IMG/VR virus record: IMGVR_UViG_3300046804_003518
Span: 64,001-128,000 of that record
DNA from: a virus
DNA: 64,000 bases
Reading direction: 5' to 3' (one strand)
Below, piece after piece: positions 36,083-45,566 of the stretch (the stretch's first letter is position 1; each line of letters begins with the position of its first letter). The translations under genes and the position numbers were made by a program. Below the pieces are notes generated by a model that saw only the letters and a program-made list of their open reading frames with translations, ran no database searches and was not told the DNA's origin.

Positions 36083-36400
36083 ATGGTCCACTACGAATAC
36101 GAAGCAAAGCATATGAGTTTCTATGAGATCAAAGAGGCGAATGGTTTTGTAAGTATGTGGTCAATCTATGATGGTGTCAATGACCCAAGTGAGCCATCAC
36201 CATACGAAGGCAAGACAATGTCCTATATGAACAATTGGGGCGAACCTGTAGAGGTGACGTTGCCTTCTGGTAAGTTGACATGGCTTCAGCTTTGGGCTGC
36301 TGCCGATAAGTGTATCAAACAGTCTGGCGATACACATCACATCTTCATCGAGGGGTTTAGGAAGAACGGTGGTATACTTGAATTGATTACAGGAAGTTGA
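36083..36400 (+). CDS. Hypothetical early protein
   Basis: Operonic spacing; HHIFIEGF motif. Confidence 0.65.
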   Translation: MVHYEYEAKHMSFYEIKEANGFVSMWSIYDGVNDPSEPSPYEGKTMSYMNNWGEPVEVTLPSGKLTWLQLWAAADKCIKQSGDTHHIFIEGFRKNGGILELITGS

Positions 36401-37797
36401 TGAGTGTAACAGCATCGCTTAAAGCAACAGACGGAATCTTTTCATCCTCACAGCGGACGCCACACAAAGTGGCCATCCGTTGTGGGGATCGCTCCGTTTC
36501 CTATTCTGAACTGACCAATAAGGTCAGACAAATCCAGCACTATTGTGTACATAAGCTCAAACTCAAGCCAGGTGATAGAGTATCGCTACTTGGTAACAAT
36601 TCAATAGAATACCTTGAGATATTAATCGCTCTAATTGATATTGGTGTTGGTGTGGTGACAATTAACCCAAAGTCTTCTCAGGAAGAGATTGACAGGTTGA
36701 GAAATGATTTGGTCACTTCAGTAAATTTTATTCTACGCGCCCCCCATATACTTTTTACTGAGGCCGGGGCTTATGAATCTACAGTAGATCTTTCGGAGGA
36801 ACTTCTAACTGACGAAGTAACCTTTGATTGGAATCTACCATCCACAATTATATTCTCTTCTGGTACAACGGGTAGATCCAAACCAATATTCATATCACAT
36901 AAGACAAGAGTTATGACATCTCTTTCTATGCCTCTGAGTTGGCGTTGGCAGCAAAATGATATCTACCTATCACTACCTTCTCTCTCTACGGGTGGAGGTA
37001 GTGGTTGTGCTCTTGCTGCTCTCTATATTGGAATGGAAGTTGTGATTCCTGAACAATACACAACCGAGTATCTTGTTGATATCATCAATAAGCGAAAGGT
37101 TACTACAATGGTAACAGTACCAGCACTTACCTATAAACTTGTCAACCAAAGATACAATCATGCAATCAATTCAGTAATATCAACTGCTGATGTTTTCCCT
37201 TATCAACTAAAAGTAGATGCCTACAACTTATGGCCAATGGCATTATATGAAACATATGCAACAACTGAGCATGGTCCAATAACATTACTCACACCTGATG
37301 ACCTTTGTAATAAACCAAACTCTGTTGGTCGTCCTTGTATTGGTTCAATGGTTAAAATCGTAGACGAACAAGGAGCTGGAGTTCCAACTAACACTCCAGG
37401 TAACATTGTAGCAACAACTCTCACACAAACAGGTGAAGGGTGGTTACCAACCAACGACATCGGATATCTTGATAGCGACAACTACCTTTACATTTTAGGT
37501 AGAGCTAATAATATGATTGTTACAAGAGGGTTCAATATACATCCTCTTGAAATTGAAGAAGCAATTAATCAGTATCCAGGAGTTGTTGAATCATGTGTTG
37601 TTGGTAAACAAAATGCCAGGTGGGGCGAGATACCTGTTGCCTTCATTGTTGGAGATGTAGATACTAGTTCGTTAAAGGCCTATCTCAGAAATAGGCTAGC
37701 AAAATATAAAGTTCCTCGTACATTTATCGTAGTTGAATCAATACCTAAGAATATTTTAGGTAAAATTGAACGCAACAAATTACGCGAACTATTATAA
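36397..37797 (+). CDS. ANL-superfamily AMP-forming acyl-CoA synthetase/adenylation enzyme
   Basis: FSSGTTGRSK P-loop, YATTE, TNDIG, GRANNMI, IPKNILGKI (A10 Lys). Confidence 0.88.
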   Translation: MMSVTASLKATDGIFSSSQRTPHKVAIRCGDRSVSYSELTNKVRQIQHYCVHKLKLKPGDRVSLLGNNSIEYLEILIALIDIGVGVVTINPKSSQEEIDRLRNDLVTSVNFILRAPHILFTEAGAYESTVDLSEELLTDEVTFDWNLPSTIIFSSGTTGRSKPIFISHKTRVMTSLSMPLSWRWQQNDIYLSLPSLSTGGGSGCALAALYIGMEVVIPEQYTTEYLVDIINKRKVTTMVTVPALTYKLVNQRYNHAINSVISTADVFPYQLKVDAYNLWPMALYETYATTEHGPITLLTPDDLCNKPNSVGRPCIGSMVKIVDEQGAGVPTNTPGNIVATTLTQTGEGWLPTNDIGYLDSDNYLYILGRANNMIVTRGFNIHPLEIEEAINQYPGVVESCVVGKQNARWGEIPVAFIVGDVDTSSLKAYLRNRLAKYKVPRTFIVVESIPKNILGKIERNKLRELL

Positions 37798-37862: not shown

Positions 37863-38348
37863 ATGACTAGACATACTCTAAGTCTATTCGATCAATTCGA
37901 TCGCGCGTGGCACAACCACTCAGTTGGCTTTGACAGAGCATTTGAAATTTTACAGCATGCTGCCAATGTCGCCAAGACCAACGACAACTTCCCACCCTAC
38001 TCTTTAGTTAAGAAGGACGACTTCAATTACGAATTGGAGATGGCTGTTGCCGGATTCAATGAAAAGGATTTGGAAATCGTTACTTCTAAAAACAGACTAT
38101 CTGTGGTTGGCATGAAGCCTGAGAAGGATGATCGTGAGTATATTGTGAAAGGAATTGCAGGACGCAGTTTCGCTCGTGAATTTGTTCTTGCTGATACTAT
38201 TGTTGTACGTGACGTGAACTTAATTGATGGTATTTTGACAATCAAGCTAGAAAATGTAGTACCTGAGGAGCAGAAGCCAAGGAAGATTACAATTGGTAAA
38301 AAGCCAATTGAGTCTAAGGCAGAACTACTTGTCGAAGAAGGCAAGTAA
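37863..38348 (+). CDS. Small heat shock protein Hsp20/IbpA family
   Basis: FPPYSL, LEMAVAGF, GIAGRSFAREF, DGILTI. Confidence 0.95.
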   Translation: MTRHTLSLFDQFDRAWHNHSVGFDRAFEILQHAANVAKTNDNFPPYSLVKKDDFNYELEMAVAGFNEKDLEIVTSKNRLSVVGMKPEKDDREYIVKGIAGRSFAREFVLADTIVVRDVNLIDGILTIKLENVVPEEQKPRKITIGKKPIESKAELLVEEGK

Positions 38349-38354
38349 CTAATG

Positions 38355-38384
38355 GAAAGGGGGCTGCAATGGCCCCCTTTCTTT
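38355..38384 (+). terminator. Rho-independent terminator
   Basis: GAAAGGGGGC...GCCCCCTTTC-TTT. Confidence 0.8.
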
Positions 38385-38465
38385 ATCAAATATTAAGATT
38401 TGATTAAGGCTTGACGTCTCAATGTTAAATATTGAAGGCAATGTTGCCATATAGGAGACATCTAA

Positions 38466-39509
38466 ATGAAATCTAAGTTAGCAATTCTTTTTGCTTTATC
38501 ACTACTTGTTGTATCTCATGTTGCCCATGCCCAGTCGCGTGATGCAATTTCAATTGTGGGATCTTCAACAGTATATCCATTCACAACAACTGTAGCAGAA
38601 CAGTTTGGTCGTCAGGGAAAGTTTAAGACACCAAAGGTGGAGTCAACAGGTACGGGTGGCGGCATTAAGCTATTCTGTAACGGTGTTGGTCCACAGTTTC
38701 CTGATATTGTTAATGCTTCTCGTAGGATGAAGGCAGCTGAATTTCAAACCTGTGTTCAGAATGGCGTAAAGGAAATTCTTGAAGTCAAGATTGGATTTGA
38801 TGGACTTACGATTTCTGAATCAAAGAAGGGTAAGCTTAACGCTTTAACTCGTAAGGATGTTTATCTTGCTCTTGCCAAGCAAGTTCCAAACCCTTCTAAT
38901 CCAACTGAGTTGATTGCTAACCCATATACAACATGGAAGGATGTTAACCCATCTCTACCAGCTGTCAAGATTGAAGTTCTTGGTCCACCACCAACAAGTG
39001 GTACGAGAGATTCATTTGCTGAGCTATTCATGGAAGCTGGTTGCCAACAATATCCATGGATTAAGTCTCTCAAGGATATTGATGAAAAAAGATATAAGAG
39101 AATTTGTCAAACACTTCGTGAAGATGGTGCATATGTTGAAGCTGGTGAGAATGACAACTTAATTGTACAAAAGATTCAATCAAATCCAAATGCTCTTGGT
39201 ATTTTTGGCTTCTCATTTCTTGAAGAAAATATGGATAAGTTAAAGGGTCTTGAGATAGATGGCGTTGCTCCAACGTTTGAAACTATCGCTTCTACTAAAT
39301 ACCCTACATCTCGTCCACTTTTCATTTATGTCAAGAAAGCGCACATTGGTACGATTCCTGGCCTAAAGGAGTTTGTGGTTGAGTACGTGAGCGAAAAGGC
39401 TACCGGTGAGGAAGGTTATCTAACTGACCGCGGCCTTGTTGCTCTTGATAAGTCAGCACTATCGAAAGTGCGTGCTGATGTTAATAATATGAAAAACTTC
39501 AAGCCATAA
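38466..39509 (+). CDS. pstS: Periplasmic phosphate-binding protein PstS
   Basis: Signal peptide; GSSTVYP, STGTGGG, ASR, SGTRDSF, SRPLFIY. Confidence 0.95.
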   Translation: MKSKLAILFALSLLVVSHVAHAQSRDAISIVGSSTVYPFTTTVAEQFGRQGKFKTPKVESTGTGGGIKLFCNGVGPQFPDIVNASRRMKAAEFQTCVQNGVKEILEVKIGFDGLTISESKKGKLNALTRKDVYLALAKQVPNPSNPTELIANPYTTWKDVNPSLPAVKIEVLGPPPTSGTRDSFAELFMEAGCQQYPWIKSLKDIDEKRYKRICQTLREDGAYVEAGENDNLIVQKIQSNPNALGIFGFSFLEENMDKLKGLEIDGVAPTFETIASTKYPTSRPLFIYVKKAHIGTIPGLKEFVVEYVSEKATGEEGYLTDRGLVALDKSALSKVRADVNNMKNFKP

Positions 39510-39534
39510 TTTCGTGGCGCAACAGGAGAAAGAA

Positions 39535-40713
39535 ATGCGTAAAGCAATTCAATCATTAGTTATTTTAGGATCATTGCTAGGTAGCGTTGCATACGGACAA
39601 AGTGCAGCTGATGTTCAAGCATCGGTTGATAATTTGTCAGATGTATTTGCTAAGGATGTAGCATCACGCTGGAAGTGGAAAGGTGACTTTCGTGTAAGAA
39701 ACGAAAACATCGATCAGGAACTTGCAGTTGAGCGCAACCGTACTAGAATGCGTGTTCGTCTTGGATTTGAAGCAGAAGTAAATCCAACTGTTAAGGCAGG
39801 CTTTCAGTTTGCTACAACAGAAAATGGAGATGCTCGTTCAACAAACCAGACCTTCAGTGATGTTAATTCTAAGAAAGCACTTGATCTTGATTTAGCATAT
39901 GTTGAGTGGGCACCAAACGCAACAACCAAGCTTACGCTTGGTAAGATGAAGCAACCTCTTGTCACAACGACATCTTACTTTGTCGATAAGGACATTAATC
40001 CAGAGGGTGCTACTCTTGCGTTTAATCACGCTCCAACTGGCGTATTTGTAAATGCTGCTTTGTTTGATCTAGTTGAGCGTAGCTCAGCTGGTGATTCAAC
40101 AGCACTAGCATGGCAAGTTGGCTTGCGTGGTAAATTGAATGATGACACAGGATATGTTCTAGCTGCTGGTGAAATGAATCACCACAATGTTCAGAACCTA
40201 GCTGTAATTCAATCAGGCGCTGCAGGTAGTTTCTTTGGTAACACAACTAAGACAACTGGTTGTGTAGCTGGAGTTACAACTTGTCTTGCAAATGAGTTTG
40301 AGGTCCGTAATGCTCTAGCTGAAGTAACAACAGTGGTCGCTGGCTATCCAGTAGTTGCTTTTGTTGATTGGGCAGAGAACACTAAGGCTGTAAAACTCAA
40401 CAAGGCTCTTGCATACGGAGTCACCCTTGGAAAAGCATCACTTCCAAATTCTTGGGAAGCTGGTGTTGTAATCCAAAGCGTTGAGAAGGACGCTCTATTT
40501 GGTCAGTGGATTGATTCTGACTATGCTGCTGGTAATACAGATGGTGATGGATATACACTTCGCGGTGCATATCAATTAGCCAAGAACTGGAAACTAAATG
40601 TTGCTTATCATATCAATAAGACAAACAATGATGTTCCAGTAGTTATTAGTGGACGTAATATTATTGATCGAGACTATAAGCGTCTACAACTTGACCTAAA
40701 CTATTCATTCTAA
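39535..40713 (+). CDS. Outer-membrane beta-barrel porin (putative-porin family often found beside pstS)
   Basis: Signal peptide; GDFRVR.E, R.RVRLG, STNQT, LDLAY; alternating strands; C-terminal Phe (NYSF). Confidence 0.8.
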   Translation: MRKAIQSLVILGSLLGSVAYGQSAADVQASVDNLSDVFAKDVASRWKWKGDFRVRNENIDQELAVERNRTRMRVRLGFEAEVNPTVKAGFQFATTENGDARSTNQTFSDVNSKKALDLDLAYVEWAPNATTKLTLGKMKQPLVTTTSYFVDKDINPEGATLAFNHAPTGVFVNAALFDLVERSSAGDSTALAWQVGLRGKLNDDTGYVLAAGEMNHHNVQNLAVIQSGAAGSFFGNTTKTTGCVAGVTTCLANEFEVRNALAEVTTVVAGYPVVAFVDWAENTKAVKLNKALAYGVTLGKASLPNSWEAGVVIQSVEKDALFGQWIDSDYAAGNTDGDGYTLRGAYQLAKNWKLNVAYHINKTNNDVPVVISGRNIIDRDYKRLQLDLNYSF

Positions 40714-40739
40714 TTGAACAAATTAGATTGTGTTGACTT

Positions 40740-40772
40740 GAAAGGGGGAGCGTTGACTCCCCCTTTCTTTTT
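40740..40772 (+). terminator. Rho-independent terminator
   Basis: GAAAGGGGGAG-6nt-CTCCCCCTTTC-TTTTT. Confidence 0.85.
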
Positions 40773-40794
40773 GTATATACTATCCCTCTTTGAG

Positions 40795-40819
40795 GAAGGG
40801 GACCTAGGTCCCCTTCTTT
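40795..40819 (+). terminator. Perfect 22-bp palindrome/second terminator
   Basis: GAAGGGGACCTAGGTCCCCTTC then TTT. Confidence 0.55.
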
Positions 40820-40881
40820 ATATTAATTTTTTATTAAAGTATCTGTTTCTGTGTTAAATAATAACATACACAGGAGACCAT

Positions 40882-41631
40882 ATGAAGTACAAATCTATCT
40901 TTATATCCGATGTACATTTAGGTTCTAAAGGATGTAAAGCTGATTTGCTTTGCGACTTTCTCAAGCACAATACTTGTGAGCAGCTGTATCTTGTCGGCGA
41001 CATCATTGATGGTTGGAGACTAAGTAGGAAGTTTTACTGGCCTCAGTCTCATACAAACGTAATTAGAAGAATCCTTACCGCGGCTAAACGAGATACAAAG
41101 GTAATCTATGTGGCTGGTAATCACGACGAGGCTCTTCGTGGTCTTCTGCCATATGATATTCACTTTGGCAATATAGATCTTGTTAACCAATGCCGCCACC
41201 AGGCAATCAATGGTAAGACCTATATGGTAATCCATGGTGATATGTTTGATACAGCTCTTCGGAACAAGTTGGCCTGGCTATATCATTTTGGTGACATACT
41301 ATATAATATTCTACTGAGCATAAACGTTGTTGTTGGTAAGGTAAGGCAACGCTTTGGTCTACCTTATTGGAGTCTAAGCGCTTATTTAAAAAATAAGACG
41401 AAAGAAGCTGTTGCCTATATGAGCGACTTTGAGGTTCTAATTACCGACTACTGCCACAAACAGAAAGCGCATGGAGTGATATGTGGCCATGTTCATAAGG
41501 CAGATATAAAGATGATTGGTGAGGTTGAATATATGAATGATGGTGACTGGGTAGAGAGCTGTACTGCCCTAGTTGAGAACTATGAGGGTAAATGGGAAAT
41601 ACTAACGTGGCAAGAATTAAAATCATCTTAA
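40882..41631 (+). CDS. plcP: PlcP-type metallophosphoesterase (phospholipase C; LpxH-like family)
   Basis: ISDVHLG, LVGDIIDGW, YWPQSH, GNHD, HGDMFD, CGHVH, NDGDWVESCT; adjacent GT4 gene. Confidence 0.8.
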   Translation: MKYKSIFISDVHLGSKGCKADLLCDFLKHNTCEQLYLVGDIIDGWRLSRKFYWPQSHTNVIRRILTAAKRDTKVIYVAGNHDEALRGLLPYDIHFGNIDLVNQCRHQAINGKTYMVIHGDMFDTALRNKLAWLYHFGDILYNILLSINVVVGKVRQRFGLPYWSLSAYLKNKTKEAVAYMSDFEVLITDYCHKQKAHGVICGHVHKADIKMIGEVEYMNDGDWVESCTALVENYEGKWEILTWQELKSS

Positions 41632-42635
41632 TCACCGACGCCTGGGAACCCCAGGTTAATGGTGTCGTGACAACATATAAAAATTTAATTAACTACCTAC
41701 CTGACAACGTCTCCGTAGACATAGTTCACCCAGCTTTGTTTGATTATTTTCCCTTCACACTATACAAAGGAATCAACATACCATTGTGTTCATTCAATAT
41801 GATGTATAACTTGATTGAAAGAAGAACAATGCACTACCAAATCCAAGGGTATAGTGTATCATACCATATAGCAACAGAAGGTGTTCTTGGCTATAAGGCC
41901 AAACGCGCTCTTGATGTAATGAAGAAACCATATACTACTGCCTACCACACAAAGTTTCCCGAGTTTCTGAAGTTAATGTTTGGTATTCCAGTTTTATTTA
42001 CATCGTGGTACTTCAACTGGTTCCATAAAAAGTCAAAGGCTGTCATGTGTTCCTCACAGTCTGATTCAATGACTCATTCAGATTGGCAGACAGTTGTTCT
42101 TGGTAAGGGTTATGCCAGCCATTTCTCGTTCAAGGACCATCGTCACAAACATGATATAAATTTACTATACGTTGGTAGAGTTAGTCACGAAAAGAATATA
42201 GAGGATTTTTGTAAACTTGACCTTGATGGTTGGACAGACTGTAACGCAAAGGTATATAAAATTATTGTTGGTGATGGTCCTGCAAGAAAATCATTAGAGA
42301 AAAAATATCCTGGAATTAGGTTTGTTGGATATAAATTTGGGAAAGACCTTGCTTCCTATTACCAGAATGCTGATGTATGTGTGTTCCCAAGCAAAGTTGA
42401 TACATTTGGAATCACGATACTTGAGTCAATGGCTTGTGGAACACCAGTTGCTGGTTATCCTGTGACCGGTCCAATTGACCAAATCATTAACGGTGTCAAT
42501 GGTTATGTTGATCAAGATCTTGAGTCGGCCGTTGGTCGCTGTCTACTTCTGGAACGAGATCTTGTAGCAAATTCAGTTAGGCATATATCGTGGAAGCAAT
42601 CAGCCCAACAGTTTGTTGACTTTATAGCTGGTTGA
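41592..42635 (+). CDS. GT4 glycosyltransferase, Agt-like glycolipid synthase (start may be GTG 41607)
   Basis: ITDAWEPQVNGVV, HIATEG.LG, YHT.FPE, YVGRVS.EKN, FPS..DTFG...LESMACGTPV. Confidence 0.85.
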   Translation: MGNTNVARIKIILITDAWEPQVNGVVTTYKNLINYLPDNVSVDIVHPALFDYFPFTLYKGINIPLCSFNMMYNLIERRTMHYQIQGYSVSYHIATEGVLGYKAKRALDVMKKPYTTAYHTKFPEFLKLMFGIPVLFTSWYFNWFHKKSKAVMCSSQSDSMTHSDWQTVVLGKGYASHFSFKDHRHKHDINLLYVGRVSHEKNIEDFCKLDLDGWTDCNAKVYKIIVGDGPARKSLEKKYPGIRFVGYKFGKDLASYYQNADVCVFPSKVDTFGITILESMACGTPVAGYPVTGPIDQIINGVNGYVDQDLESAVGRCLLLERDLVANSVRHISWKQSAQQFVDFIAG

Positions 42636-42660
42636 CTGTTACCATCGTTTAATGTATACT
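42632..42660 (+). promoter_or_regulatory. Sigma70-type promoter for the Tat-protein/gp43 operon
   Basis: TTGACT-N17-TATACT. Confidence 0.75.
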
Positions 42661-42687
42661 CCCTCCTATCGTAGGAGGGACGTTATC

Positions 42688-43023
42688 ATGTCAACAAGGC
42701 GTAATTTTTTTAAGTATCTTGGACTTGCTGGTGGTGTAGCAGTAGGTGGTCCTGTCGCCGCTGCAGCTATCATTCCTAAAGGTAAACCAAAGCACATTGA
42801 ACAACTTGATGGCGGATCGCACCTGCAATTGCGAGCAACATATGGCGAGAAGGTTGGCCTCGGCACAATAAACCCAACTAACAAACTAACGGTTTTTAGT
42901 CATCAGACGCAAGAGTTTGTTCCTGGAACTGTTGAGCAGGTTGATGTTTCGTTCAAGCCAGGTCCTGATGGTGAATTGTACTTGAAAGTTAATGGGAAAT
43001 GGCGTAAAGTAGTTACTGAATGA
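42688..43023 (+). CDS. Protein with a twin-arginine (Tat) signal peptide
   Basis: MSTRRNFFKYLGLAGGVAVGG...AAA; AGGAGG RBS. Confidence 0.7.
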   Translation: MSTRRNFFKYLGLAGGVAVGGPVAAAAIIPKGKPKHIEQLDGGSHLQLRATYGEKVGLGTINPTNKLTVFSHQTQEFVPGTVEQVDVSFKPGPDGELYLKVNGKWRKVVTE

Positions 43024-45566
43024 GCAAGTTCTATACAAATGTAAGTATCCGAGGGAATAAGATTCTCCTTCGTGGCTATGAGGATGGTCGTAGAGTTCAT
43101 ACTGACATCCCATACCAACCTTTTTGTTTCCAACGATCGAGCAATCCAAATGCTCCGTATAAGACTATCGATGGTTATCCAGCCGATAGAAAGGACTTCG
43201 AATCTATCAATGACATGATGGATTACATGAAGATGTATGAGGGTGTAGAAGGAATTAAACTCTACGGAATGACATCCAAGAGTTCTCTCATCTATCCATT
43301 CATCCACGAATACTATCCTGGTGAGATTCAATACGATGCCTCTTTGATGAACATCGTTCACCTTGATATCGAGGTCGCGGCTGATGAAGGATTCCCTAAC
43401 ATCGATGAAGCTGATAAGGCACTAACTGCTATCACTATTAAGGTTAAGGATAGGTACTACACTTTTGGTTGTGGTGACTATACACCTACAGCTGACAACA
43501 TCATGTACGCCAAGTGTAAGAACGAACGCGACTTGATTATGAAGTTCTTAACTCTTTGGGATTCTCCTCTTGTTGATCCAGACATCGTAACTGGCTGGAA
43601 CGTAGAGGGGTTCGATATTCCATATCTCGTCAATAGAATCGATAGAGTATTCAATGACGAAGGTAAGATGTCAAAGAAACTCTCACCTTGGAAGATTGTC
43701 GACGACAAGGAAATCATTATGAGAGGGTCTGGTAAGACTCTCAAGGCAAAGACGCTGAGAGGAATCTCAGTGCTTGACTATTTGCAGCTCTATAGAAAGT
43801 TTACATACTCTGATACAGAAAGCTATTCTCTTAACCATATTGCTCACCTCGAGCTTGGTGAGAAGAAGATTGACTACTCTGAGTATGAAAGTCTGTTTGA
43901 TCTTTATAAGCACGACTTCCAAAAGTTCATTGAGTATAATATCCACGACGTTACTCTCGTAAGCCAGCTTGATGATAAGATGAAGCTTATCGATCAGGTT
44001 CTTGCTATTGCATATGATGCGAAGGTTGACTATATCGATACTCTTCGTACAGTGCGCATGTGGGATATGATTATCCACAACTACCTAATCGATAACAATA
44101 TTGTTGTTCCTCTTTCGAAGAACGAAGAAGAACTTAAACTTGTTAGAGAAGAGAAGGATCAACCAATTAAGGGTGCTTATGTAAAAGATCCTAAACCTGG
44201 AATGTATAAGTACGTTGTCTCATTTGACTTGACATCTCTATATCCATCGCTGATCATGCAGTATAACATCTCGCCTGATACTAAGATGAATAAGGTTGAT
44301 CTTACGCCAGAAGATTGTTTGGACAATACTGGTTCGTTCCAGATGGCTAAGGACGATGCAAAGAGTCTCGACTATACACTTTGTGCTAATGGTACGATGT
44401 ATAGAAAAGATAAGCTCGGGTTCCTGCCAGCGCTGATGGAAAAGGTCTTCGCCGATAGAAAGAAGTATAAGAAGCTAATGCTTGAAGCAAAGCAGAAGTA
44501 TGAACTATCGAAAGATCCTGAAGATGAAAAGAAATACGTTCAGTATAACAATATGCAGATGGCAAAGAAGATTCAGCTGAATAGCTGTTACGGTGCTTTG
44601 TCTAATATCTACTTCAGATTCTTTGATACAGATCTAGCTGAAGCAATCACACTATCTGGCCAGGTATCGATTCGTTGGATGCAAGCGAAGATGAATGAGT
44701 TCTTGAATAAGACTCTCAAGACTGACAATGTCGATTATGTTATTGCTGTTGATACTGACTCTCTTTATATTACTCTTGATAAGTTTGTTGATAAGGTATA
44801 CAATGGCAAGGTACCAGAAAGAGATAAAGTCATTCGTATGCTAGATAAGGCTTGTGATGAAGTCTTCCAGCCATTCATCGAAAAGAGTTATGATGACCTA
44901 GCTAACCATATGTTGATCTATAGTCAGCGTATGCAGATGAAGCGAGAGTCAATTGCCGATAAAGGTATCTGGGTAGCGAAGAAGAGATACATCTTGAATG
45001 TCTTTAACGAAGAAGGTGTTCAGTATGAGAAGCCAAAGCTGAAGATGAAAGGCATTGAAGCTGTTAAGTCTTCAACTCCTGCCAAGATCAAGGAAGCAAT
45101 TAAGAAGTCGCTTGACATTATTATGAATGGCACAAAGGATGATTTTACTAAGTATGTGGAAGACTTCAAGCAAGAGTTTGATACTCTACCGTTTGAAGAT
45201 GTGGCATTCCCTAGAAGTTGTCAAGGCGTAACCAAACATAAGATTGGTGGTAAGGCAATTCCAATTCATGTGAGAGGCGCACTCATTTACAACCATTTCA
45301 TAAATAACTTAGGACTTGACAAAAAGCACAATAAGATTCAGGATGGAGATAAGATTAAGTTCTGCTACTTGAGAACACCTAATCCATTCTCGACGAATGT
45401 TATATCATCTCCAGGTGCCTTGCCAAAGCAATTCAATATCGATCGTTATATTGATCACGATACACAATTTGAAAAGTCTTTCATTGAGCCGATGAAGTCA
45501 ATCACGGACAACATTGGTTGGGATCTTGGACAAAAGCAATTAACTCTAGAAGACATGTTCGGGTAA
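43020..45566 (+). CDS. gp43: Family B DNA polymerase gp43
   Basis: Exo DIE, FDIPY, YNIHD; Pol FDLTSLYPS, K..LNS.YG, DTDS. Confidence 0.98.
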   Translation: MSKFYTNVSIRGNKILLRGYEDGRRVHTDIPYQPFCFQRSSNPNAPYKTIDGYPADRKDFESINDMMDYMKMYEGVEGIKLYGMTSKSSLIYPFIHEYYPGEIQYDASLMNIVHLDIEVAADEGFPNIDEADKALTAITIKVKDRYYTFGCGDYTPTADNIMYAKCKNERDLIMKFLTLWDSPLVDPDIVTGWNVEGFDIPYLVNRIDRVFNDEGKMSKKLSPWKIVDDKEIIMRGSGKTLKAKTLRGISVLDYLQLYRKFTYSDTESYSLNHIAHLELGEKKIDYSEYESLFDLYKHDFQKFIEYNIHDVTLVSQLDDKMKLIDQVLAIAYDAKVDYIDTLRTVRMWDMIIHNYLIDNNIVVPLSKNEEELKLVREEKDQPIKGAYVKDPKPGMYKYVVSFDLTSLYPSLIMQYNISPDTKMNKVDLTPEDCLDNTGSFQMAKDDAKSLDYTLCANGTMYRKDKLGFLPALMEKVFADRKKYKKLMLEAKQKYELSKDPEDEKKYVQYNNMQMAKKIQLNSCYGALSNIYFRFFDTDLAEAITLSGQVSIRWMQAKMNEFLNKTLKTDNVDYVIAVDTDSLYITLDKFVDKVYNGKVPERDKVIRMLDKACDEVFQPFIEKSYDDLANHMLIYSQRMQMKRESIADKGIWVAKKRYILNVFNEEGVQYEKPKLKMKGIEAVKSSTPAKIKEAIKKSLDIIMNGTKDDFTKYVEDFKQEFDTLPFEDVAFPRSCQGVTKHKIGGKAIPIHVRGALIYNHFINNLGLDKKHNKIQDGDKIKFCYLRTPNPFSTNVISSPGALPKQFNIDRYIDHDTQFEKSFIEPMKSITDNIGWDLGQKQLTLEDMFG

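Follow-up and report, generated by a model that had tools for sequence, protein, structure and literature searches.

A likely phosphorus module, pstS-porin-plcP-agt, in the genome of an uncultured T4-like phage

Here, we describe four adjacent genes, pstS-porin-plcP-agt, at positions 38466-42635 of a 64-kb stretch of viral DNA ("the window"), which comprises bases 64,001-128,000 of the 188,323-bp IMG/VR virus record IMGVR_UViG_3300046804_003518, rated 100% complete. We consider this block a likely auxiliary metabolic gene (AMG) module for phosphorus, one that would couple phosphate uptake with the conversion of phospholipid to glycolipid in the infected cell. Its genes are intact, belong to defined families and clades, keep their catalytic residues and gene order, evolve under purifying selection, and reside in a phage genome. 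An earlier note on this DNA had claimed four adjacent intact genes, and all four open reading frames (ORFs) are indeed present and uninterrupted on the + strand, between hsp20 and polB:

38466-39509, + strand: pstS, periplasmic phosphate-binding protein with signal peptide (PBP_like_2)
39535-40713, + strand: outer-membrane beta-barrel porin of the Porin_5 family (Porin_5 match, signal peptide, C-terminal Phe, AlphaFold2 model)
40882-41631, + strand: plcP, PlcP-type phospholipase C of the LpxH-like metallophosphoesterase fold (tree and diagnostic residues)
41592-42635, + strand: agt, Agt/GTcp-type GT4, predicted diacylglycerol glycosyltransferase (motifs and tree)

The genes form two units, each of which has a cellular model. 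The first, pstS-porin, copies a cellular pstS-porin-pstC arrangement, and during infection its outer-membrane channel and periplasmic phosphate-binding protein would feed the host's own PstCAB transporter. The second, plcP-agt, copies the bacterial lipid-renovation operon: PlcP would cut the phospho-head group from host phospholipids, leaving diacylglycerol, onto which Agt would move a sugar from a UDP-sugar, giving a phosphorus-free glycolipid and keeping the membrane intact. The released phosphate esters could then, after the action of host phosphatases, supply phage DNA synthesis.

Phage phosphate-uptake genes (pstS, phoA, and phoH), such as those carried by T4-like cyanophages, are a standard example of viral metabolic reprogramming. 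As with these AMGs in cyanophages and pelagiphages, the window offers a phage pstS that would feed the host Pst transporter, and a phoH homologue lies elsewhere in the phage genome (G000:C1:168822-169424, 150.9 bits); it differs from them in that pstS is joined to an outer-membrane porin and to lipid-remodelling enzymes. The module brings together a familiar sort of phage AMG, pstS, a porin linked to pst, and a PlcP-Agt pair in viral form. Our literature searches on plcP and phages, on lipid remodelling and AMGs, and on phosphate porins and AMGs found no paper describing a phage plcP or agt, and neither a pelagimyophage survey nor the genome announcement of phage Mosig mentions a phage plcP. 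This agrees with the earlier note, whose author knew of no characterised phage plcP-agt pair, although uncharacterised homologues, labelled LpxH, do occur in the isolates Mosig and S-SRM01.

Identity of the phosphoesterase and the glycosyltransferase

Databases would have the phosphoesterase named differently. JGI labels close homologues LpxH, GenBank does likewise for those of Mosig and S-SRM01, AMG surveys file viral lpxH under lipopolysaccharide (LPS) biosynthesis, and LpxH (UDP-2,3-diacylglucosamine diphosphatase, an enzyme of lipid A synthesis) is the nearest solved fold. On these labels the GT4 would be an LPS glycosyltransferase, and the phage would alter LPS. We consider this highly improbable and have rejected both identifications, which are contradicted by scores, motifs, and paralogy.

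The protein matches the Pfam families Metallophos and Metallophos_2, and falls far under the cut-offs of two NCBIfam LpxH equivalogs (41.7 bits against 134 for NF003743, and 27.2 against 190 for the second). Five beta- and gammaproteobacterial genomes each encode a true LpxH (218-284 bits) together with a separate PlcP-like paralogue (34-57 bits), and it is this paralogue that is homologous to the phage protein; a tblastn search with the latter, at E 1e-5, matched no true LpxH.

The earlier note had proposed a phylogeny of PlcP versus LpxH clades as a check. In a tree of 169 sequences (the window protein, 84 viral and 78 cellular homologues, and 6 LpxH including that of E. coli; FastTree only), the phosphoesterase falls on the PlcP side, for which SAR11 orthologues were the reference in place of the characterised PlcP of S. 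meliloti, Phaeobacter, and P. aeruginosa. The six LpxH form an outgroup on a long branch (support 100), and the window protein sits in a 70-member all-viral clade (support 99) inside the cellular agt-linked PlcP family. Nearly all viral PlcP, that of Mosig included, make up one group of about 85 sequences, the nearest cellular neighbours of which are gammaproteobacterial. Three cellular PlcP, from two Hyphomonas metagenome-assembled genomes (MAGs) and one Pseudomonadota MAG (L083, L084, and L085), nest in an otherwise viral clade. They are without a GT4 neighbour and have a plcP G+C that matches their own loci (0.52-0.61); their placement may reflect an old phage-to-cell transfer or a donor lineage.

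Residue by residue, the separation is clean. All 163 PlcP-like rows of the alignment carry GNHD (H81), CGHxH, and N219, whereas all six LpxH carry GNRDF and HGHTH. The window protein is in the PlcP state at every diagnostic position (GNHDE, CGHVH, and YMNDGDWVES), and an alignment of 26 family members, this protein included, shows no variation at the metal-binding residues D10, H12, D40, N80, H81, H118, H203, and H205.

There is no solved PlcP structure, and a PDB search with the single sequence returned no match; only the family profile reached LpxH. By this profile and by the AlphaFold2 model, LpxH (PDB 5K8K, 6PH9, 5B49) is the nearest solved relative, at 15-19% identity and a template modelling (TM) score of 0.57. 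The model (predicted local distance difference test, pLDDT, 78.8) has the metallophosphoesterase core and, like LpxH with its lipid-binding one, an inserted helical cap, which is of low confidence (pLDDT 50-64, at about residues 121-180). The likeness is thus one of fold, set against low identity, a score under the equivalog cut-off, other diagnostic residues, and separate paralogy. The phosphoesterase is PlcP, not LpxH, and is predicted to cleave phospholipids to diacylglycerol in a Mn-dependent manner.

The GT4 matches the Pfam families Glycos_transf_1 (E 3.5e-22) and Glyco_transf_4. Members of the Agt/GTcp group are <25% identical to other GT4s and have the UDP-sugar motifs GRVAXEKN and FPSXTDTFG, as well as a His104-Asp256 dyad, with Asp at the position where GT4s usually have Glu (PMC8231724). 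In the phage protein each motif has a single substitution (GRVSHEKN and FPSKVDTFG), and the Asp is kept as Asp270; this Asp-for-Glu signature of the Agt group also argues against an LPS glycosyltransferase. As GTcp reference we used the 334-aa GT4 directly after plcP in SAR11 single-cell genomes, which has the published residues at exactly those numbers. The phage GT4 is 35% identical to this enzyme and keeps 12 of the 14 functional residues checked, namely the H104/D256 dyad (H119 and D270 in the phage numbering), G16, G82, G85, R190, K195, T257, F258, G259, E264, and W320 (W334 in the phage). The dyad and the donor-site positions among these are ones at which mutation abolishes GTcp activity. 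Motifs, functional residues, and synteny therefore all place it in the Agt/GTcp group, as the earlier note had supposed, and it would make glucosyl-, galactosyl-, or glucuronosyl-diacylglycerol. A role in DNA glycosylation was also considered and rejected.

All 44 viral GT4s form one clade (support 97), and the cellular GT4s closest to it are encoded in gammaproteobacterial genomes whose PlcP are also the neighbours of the viral PlcP clade. Because the two viral clades share these neighbours, the plcP-agt pair was probably captured as a unit and has since diversified in phages.

The pair can be set beside the bacterial PlcP-Agt operon (SAR11 HTCC7211 plcP and agt PB7211_960/GTcp, Agrobacterium Agt atu2297, and Phaeobacter MED193 PlcP; PMC4796936, PMC8231724). 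The two families are the same and stand in the same order, the catalytic and UDP-sugar motifs are shared, the PlcP-diagnostic residues are identical, and pstS is found nearby in SAR11 genomes too. The phage versions differ in forming separate all-viral clades, at 47-60% (PlcP) and 33-42% (Agt) identity to cellular proteins, in being phage-encoded with overlapping genes and no Pho box, and in the changes T162G and R163K in the acceptor site.

PstS and its porin

The PstS assignment rests on a PBP_like_2 match of 172 bits against a cut-off of 27 (E 2.5e-50) and on a signal-like N-terminus; TIGR02136 scores 159.8 bits, under its cut-off of 206.6, and no PHROG family matches at E 1e-3. The porin likewise has no PHROG family, and PlcP and the GT4 have generic weak matches only.

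The porin has a Porin_5 match (E 5e-23), a signal peptide, and Phe as its last residue. Its start is likelier the ATG at 39535, giving 392 aa against 391-396 aa in relatives, than the GTG at 39514. The AlphaFold2 model is a confident beta-barrel with strands throughout and an N-terminal helix (pLDDT 90.3; predicted TM score, pTM, 0.82), for which Foldseek returned trimeric porins (OmpM1 at 1e-16; OmpF, OmpC, and PhoE at about 1e-11).

An exhaustive search gave 2,721 representative relatives of the porin. The nearest of these, a cellular protein at 50% identity on a contig of 63% G+C, lies between pstS and a long-form pstC, and the PstS of that contig is 75% identical to the phage PstS; the phage pstS-porin unit thus mirrors a cellular pst operon. 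The conserved arginines R53, R55, R69, R71, R73, and R75 alternate on two neighbouring strands; they would face one side of the barrel wall and could possibly line an anion path. In its tie to pst, its barrel fold, and its run of arginines, the porin resembles the phosphate-starvation porins (OprO/OprP, PF07396; PhoE, PDB 1PHO), the last of which is among its fold matches; it differs from them in belonging to Porin_5, in scoring under the Porin_O_P threshold, and in its N-terminal helix. It may be phosphate-selective.

The porin was not found in five alphaproteobacterial genomes. Among 401 sampled Pseudomonadota it is rare, occurring in 8 only, with tblastn identities of 23-32% or below. Relatives occur in cellular pst operons and on many viral contigs, but 50,697 phage records contain none; we regard this pstS-linked Porin_5 channel as a candidate family of phosphate porins.

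The N-terminal helix is predicted at residues 24-43, and those cellular proteins closest to the porin have 40-90 additional residues at this end. OmpM1, which gives the best fold match, serves as an outer-membrane attachment porin; a shortened periplasmic stalk is therefore one possible reading of the helix.

Phage residence, spread, and layout

The window encodes a T4-type tail sheath, portal, and major head protein, UvsW-like and DnaB-like helicases, a gp46-like nuclease subunit, and a family B DNA polymerase, and its source is an uncultured T4-like phage of lytic type. The major head protein is 70% identical to its counterpart in Stenotrophomonas phage DLP_6 and 63-66% to those of Methylophilales phage Melnitz, Sinorhizobium phiM12-like phages, and pelagimyophages. 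The genes flanking the block are:

37863-38348: hsp20, upstream neighbour
42652-43023: orf123, downstream neighbour, directly upstream of polB
43020-45566: polB, T4-type family B DNA polymerase, downstream flank

Since the four block genes are all bacterial in type and come from a metagenome assembly, host DNA could in principle have been joined to the phage by misassembly, a chimera the earlier note had raised. We give this almost no credence, and the idea is refuted by independent assemblies and by uniform G+C. The same polB (74-99% identity) adjoins plcP in six other assemblies; in four of these the same hsp20 flank is present as well (84-93%), and a seventh assembly (L053) has the hsp20 flank alone (86%). 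The G+C of the block (0.401) equals that of the window (0.404), which is even along its length at about 0.40. In addition, viral plcP and agt form deep clades of their own, and phage-type terminators and TAAATA motifs flank the genes. Against relatives, the block has nonsynonymous divergence (dN) of 0.09-0.37 with saturated synonymous divergence (dS), and dN/dS is 0.03-0.14 where computable, i.e., purifying selection is strong.

In IMG/VR, a pattern search turned up close PlcP homologues on 148 contigs, of which 80 were examined as viral loci. The survey of viral plcP-agt synteny proposed in the earlier note shows the pairing to be common: a GT4 overlaps plcP or lies ≤200 nt downstream in 42 of the 80. 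A pstS is present in 14 of these loci and a porin in 10. Cellular loci have the GT4 directly downstream of plcP in 63 of 80 cases, among them Pelagibacteraceae (SAR11), Sphingomonadales, Caulobacter, and Paraburkholderia; plcP immediately upstream of agt is the published "type 2" arrangement (PMC4796936). Among the 80 viral loci, only the present record has all four genes together, and relatives with the polB slot carry plcP-GT4 or plcP-pstS-porin. A PlcP homologue at 79% identity belongs to a 357-kb contig, where the gene order is pstS-plcP-GT4-fatty acid desaturase and the surroundings hold many small genes without annotation. Phage-type proteins encoded in the flanks of other viral loci include NAMPT, ribonucleotide reductase, minor coat protein, and homing endonucleases.

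Among cultured phages, PlcP homologues occur in pelagimyophage Mosig and Synechococcus phage S-SRM01 (34% identity), both annotated as LpxH; cultured phage records hold no close GT4 (best ≤28% identity). The Mosig EXVC030M protein (Mosig_00120, "putative UDP-2,3-diacylglucosamine hydrolase") is 55.7% identical, belongs to the viral PlcP group, and is encoded beside a phage pstS in a cultured T4-like phage. Mosig differs in having no match to the phage GT4 at E 1e-5, no porin, and a pstS in divergent orientation. Overlapping the end of its plcP homologue, where the GT4 starts in other phages, is a 72-aa hypothetical ORF (Mosig_00121, L001:6695-6913), at which tblastn with the phage GT4 found nothing; it could be a GT4 remnant or an unrelated small gene.

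Within the block and at its upstream boundary, the following elements were located:

~38354-38385, + strand: terminator-like hairpin and T-run closing hsp20, at the upstream block boundary (read directly from the sequence)
38423-38431, + strand: TGTTAAATA, copy 1, 43 nt before the pstS ATG; candidate phage late-type promoter element
40740-40767 (11 pairs) and 40791-40820 (13 pairs), + strand: two tandem intrinsic terminators closing pstS-porin, with a T-run after each
40852-40860, + strand: TGTTAAATA, copy 2, 30 nt before the plcP ATG

The hsp20 hairpin (a 10-bp G+C-rich stem, a 7-nt loop, and a T-run) is absent from the list of the terminator scanner. The earlier note had given the four genes their own terminators and upstream repeats. 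Terminators follow hsp20 and, twice, the porin; there is none between pstS and porin, nor between plcP and the GT4. Since they lie only outside the gene pairs, the block consists of two two-gene units: the porin is probably co-transcribed with pstS, and plcP and agt, which overlap by 40 nt (GT4 start at 41592, phosphoesterase stop at 41631), are probably translationally coupled.

As for the repeats, the 9-mer TGTTAAATA has exactly two copies in the window, one ahead of each unit; no longer repeat is shared, just short chance-type matches. At an equal distance before plcP, GGTTAAATA is found in L008 and L013, two close relatives. The sheath, portal, and major head genes are preceded by NTAAATA at 28-45 nt, and TGTTAAATA therefore looks like a variant of the T4-type late promoter of this phage. 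A scan for sigma-70 promoters was uninformative (28 sites against 25.8 expected).

Regulation in the relatives points to phosphate. Of 63 non-redundant viral loci, eight carry Pho-box-like direct repeats (TGTMAY-N5-NGTMAY; e.g., TGTCATGATATTGTCAT) ahead of plcP, at a distance of 39-59 nt and at about 45-fold the background density of those loci; the eight are L004, L006, L007, L014, L041, L063, L079, and L080.

With regard to the host, the cellular sequences that neighbour viral plcP and agt on the donor side are gammaproteobacterial; an alphaproteobacterial host is not demonstrated. The genome also encodes a permuted (two-piece) tmRNA with the tag ANDDVYNMALAA (G000:C1:155341-155701, L178:542-902), confirmed by ARAGORN. 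We take such a tmRNA to point to alpha-, some beta-proteobacteria, or cyanobacteria as the host group, and no further.

Phosphorus supply, envelope change, and wider meaning

It is important to weigh several points that stand against a phosphorus module. The activities of the viral PlcP and Agt are predicted from their sequences, and obtaining free phosphate from phospho-head groups requires further phosphatases. The porin misses the threshold for phosphate-selective porins (Porin_O_P, PF07396; 19.0 bits against a gathering score of 20.9), although some homologues at 80-88% identity carry a precomputed PF07396 match, and its fold best matches general porins. Two of the four published diacylglycerol-binding residues (H104, T162, R163, and W320) differ in the phage GT4, with T162 replaced by G and R163 by K. 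Finally, there is no Pho box before pstS or plcP: the whole window has zero matches to TGTMAY-N5-NGTMAY, and its best intergenic score, 9/12, is at background level. A direct link to phosphate starvation is thus missing in this phage, while it is documented in its relatives, and the lack of a Pho box suggests that the genes may be expressed from phage late-type TAAATA promoters. When the genes are expressed, and what the phage gains from them, is inferred.

The two altered residues invite the view that the enzymes act on something else, the phosphoesterase on another lipid-linked or soluble phosphodiester and the GT4 on an acceptor other than diacylglycerol. The low confidence of the helical cap in the PlcP model fits this, as does the fact that substrates of the viral members are deduced from sequence. 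We nevertheless think it quite unlikely: all metal-binding and family-diagnostic residues are kept, G162 is also seen in 11 of 58 cellular plcP-linked GT4s, and the gene pair keeps the order and overlap of the cellular operon.

Lipid remodelling could also be real and yet be selected for a changed envelope rather than for phosphorus, through exclusion of competitor phages, the timing of lysis and membrane stability, or grazing. The missing Pho box and the possible phage-type promoters in the window would fit constitutive expression in every infection, and two papers describe lipid-remodelled cells as differing in their interaction with predators and membrane lipids as affecting phage attachment (PMC9457565, PMC9938194). 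Set against this, the pair lies here in one block with pstS and a porin tied to pst, it is joined to pstS in other viral loci and in Mosig too, and Pho-box-like sites stand upstream of plcP in relatives. We regard an envelope benefit in place of phosphorus supply as unlikely, and the two benefits can coexist.

Returning to phosphorus supply, a bolder version of it is conceivable, which we hold only tentatively and rather doubt. The block would then be a complete phosphorus programme under phage late-type promoters and independent of the host Pho regulon, with PstS and a pst-dedicated Porin_5 anion channel, and with the membrane serving as a phosphorus store for phage DNA. The "lpxH" of aquatic viromes would have this same function and stand for widespread, unrecognised viral phosphorus recycling. 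Two virus surveys list "lpxH" as an LPS-biosynthesis AMG (PMC10653327, PMC9611531), and this is probably the same gene family under a wrong name.

As far as our literature searches reach, a phage route that frees phosphorus from the host's own membrane is undescribed. If the enzymes work like their bacterial orthologues, infected cells in phosphate-poor waters would change their lipid composition, with effects on lipid-based markers of phosphorus stress, on phage adsorption, and on grazing, and the "lpxH" entries of the two AMG surveys would have to be re-labelled. Working expression assays already exist for both bacterial enzymes, PlcP and Agt.

Two neighbours of the block deserve a brief mention. 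The downstream orf123 (42652-43023) has no Pfam or PHROG family and a weak match to a twin-arginine signal (E 0.002), and is kept directly upstream of polB in the relatives L009 (61%) and L037 (86%). Just upstream of hsp20, at 36397-37797, lies an acyl-CoA/AMP-binding ligase (FadD/MenE-like; 264 bits, under every NCBIfam cut-off), and relatives L008, L010, and L013 have a ligase at the same place, at 38-39% identity to that of the window. Together with the fatty-acid desaturase of the 357-kb relative, it may represent further lipid-related phage genes.

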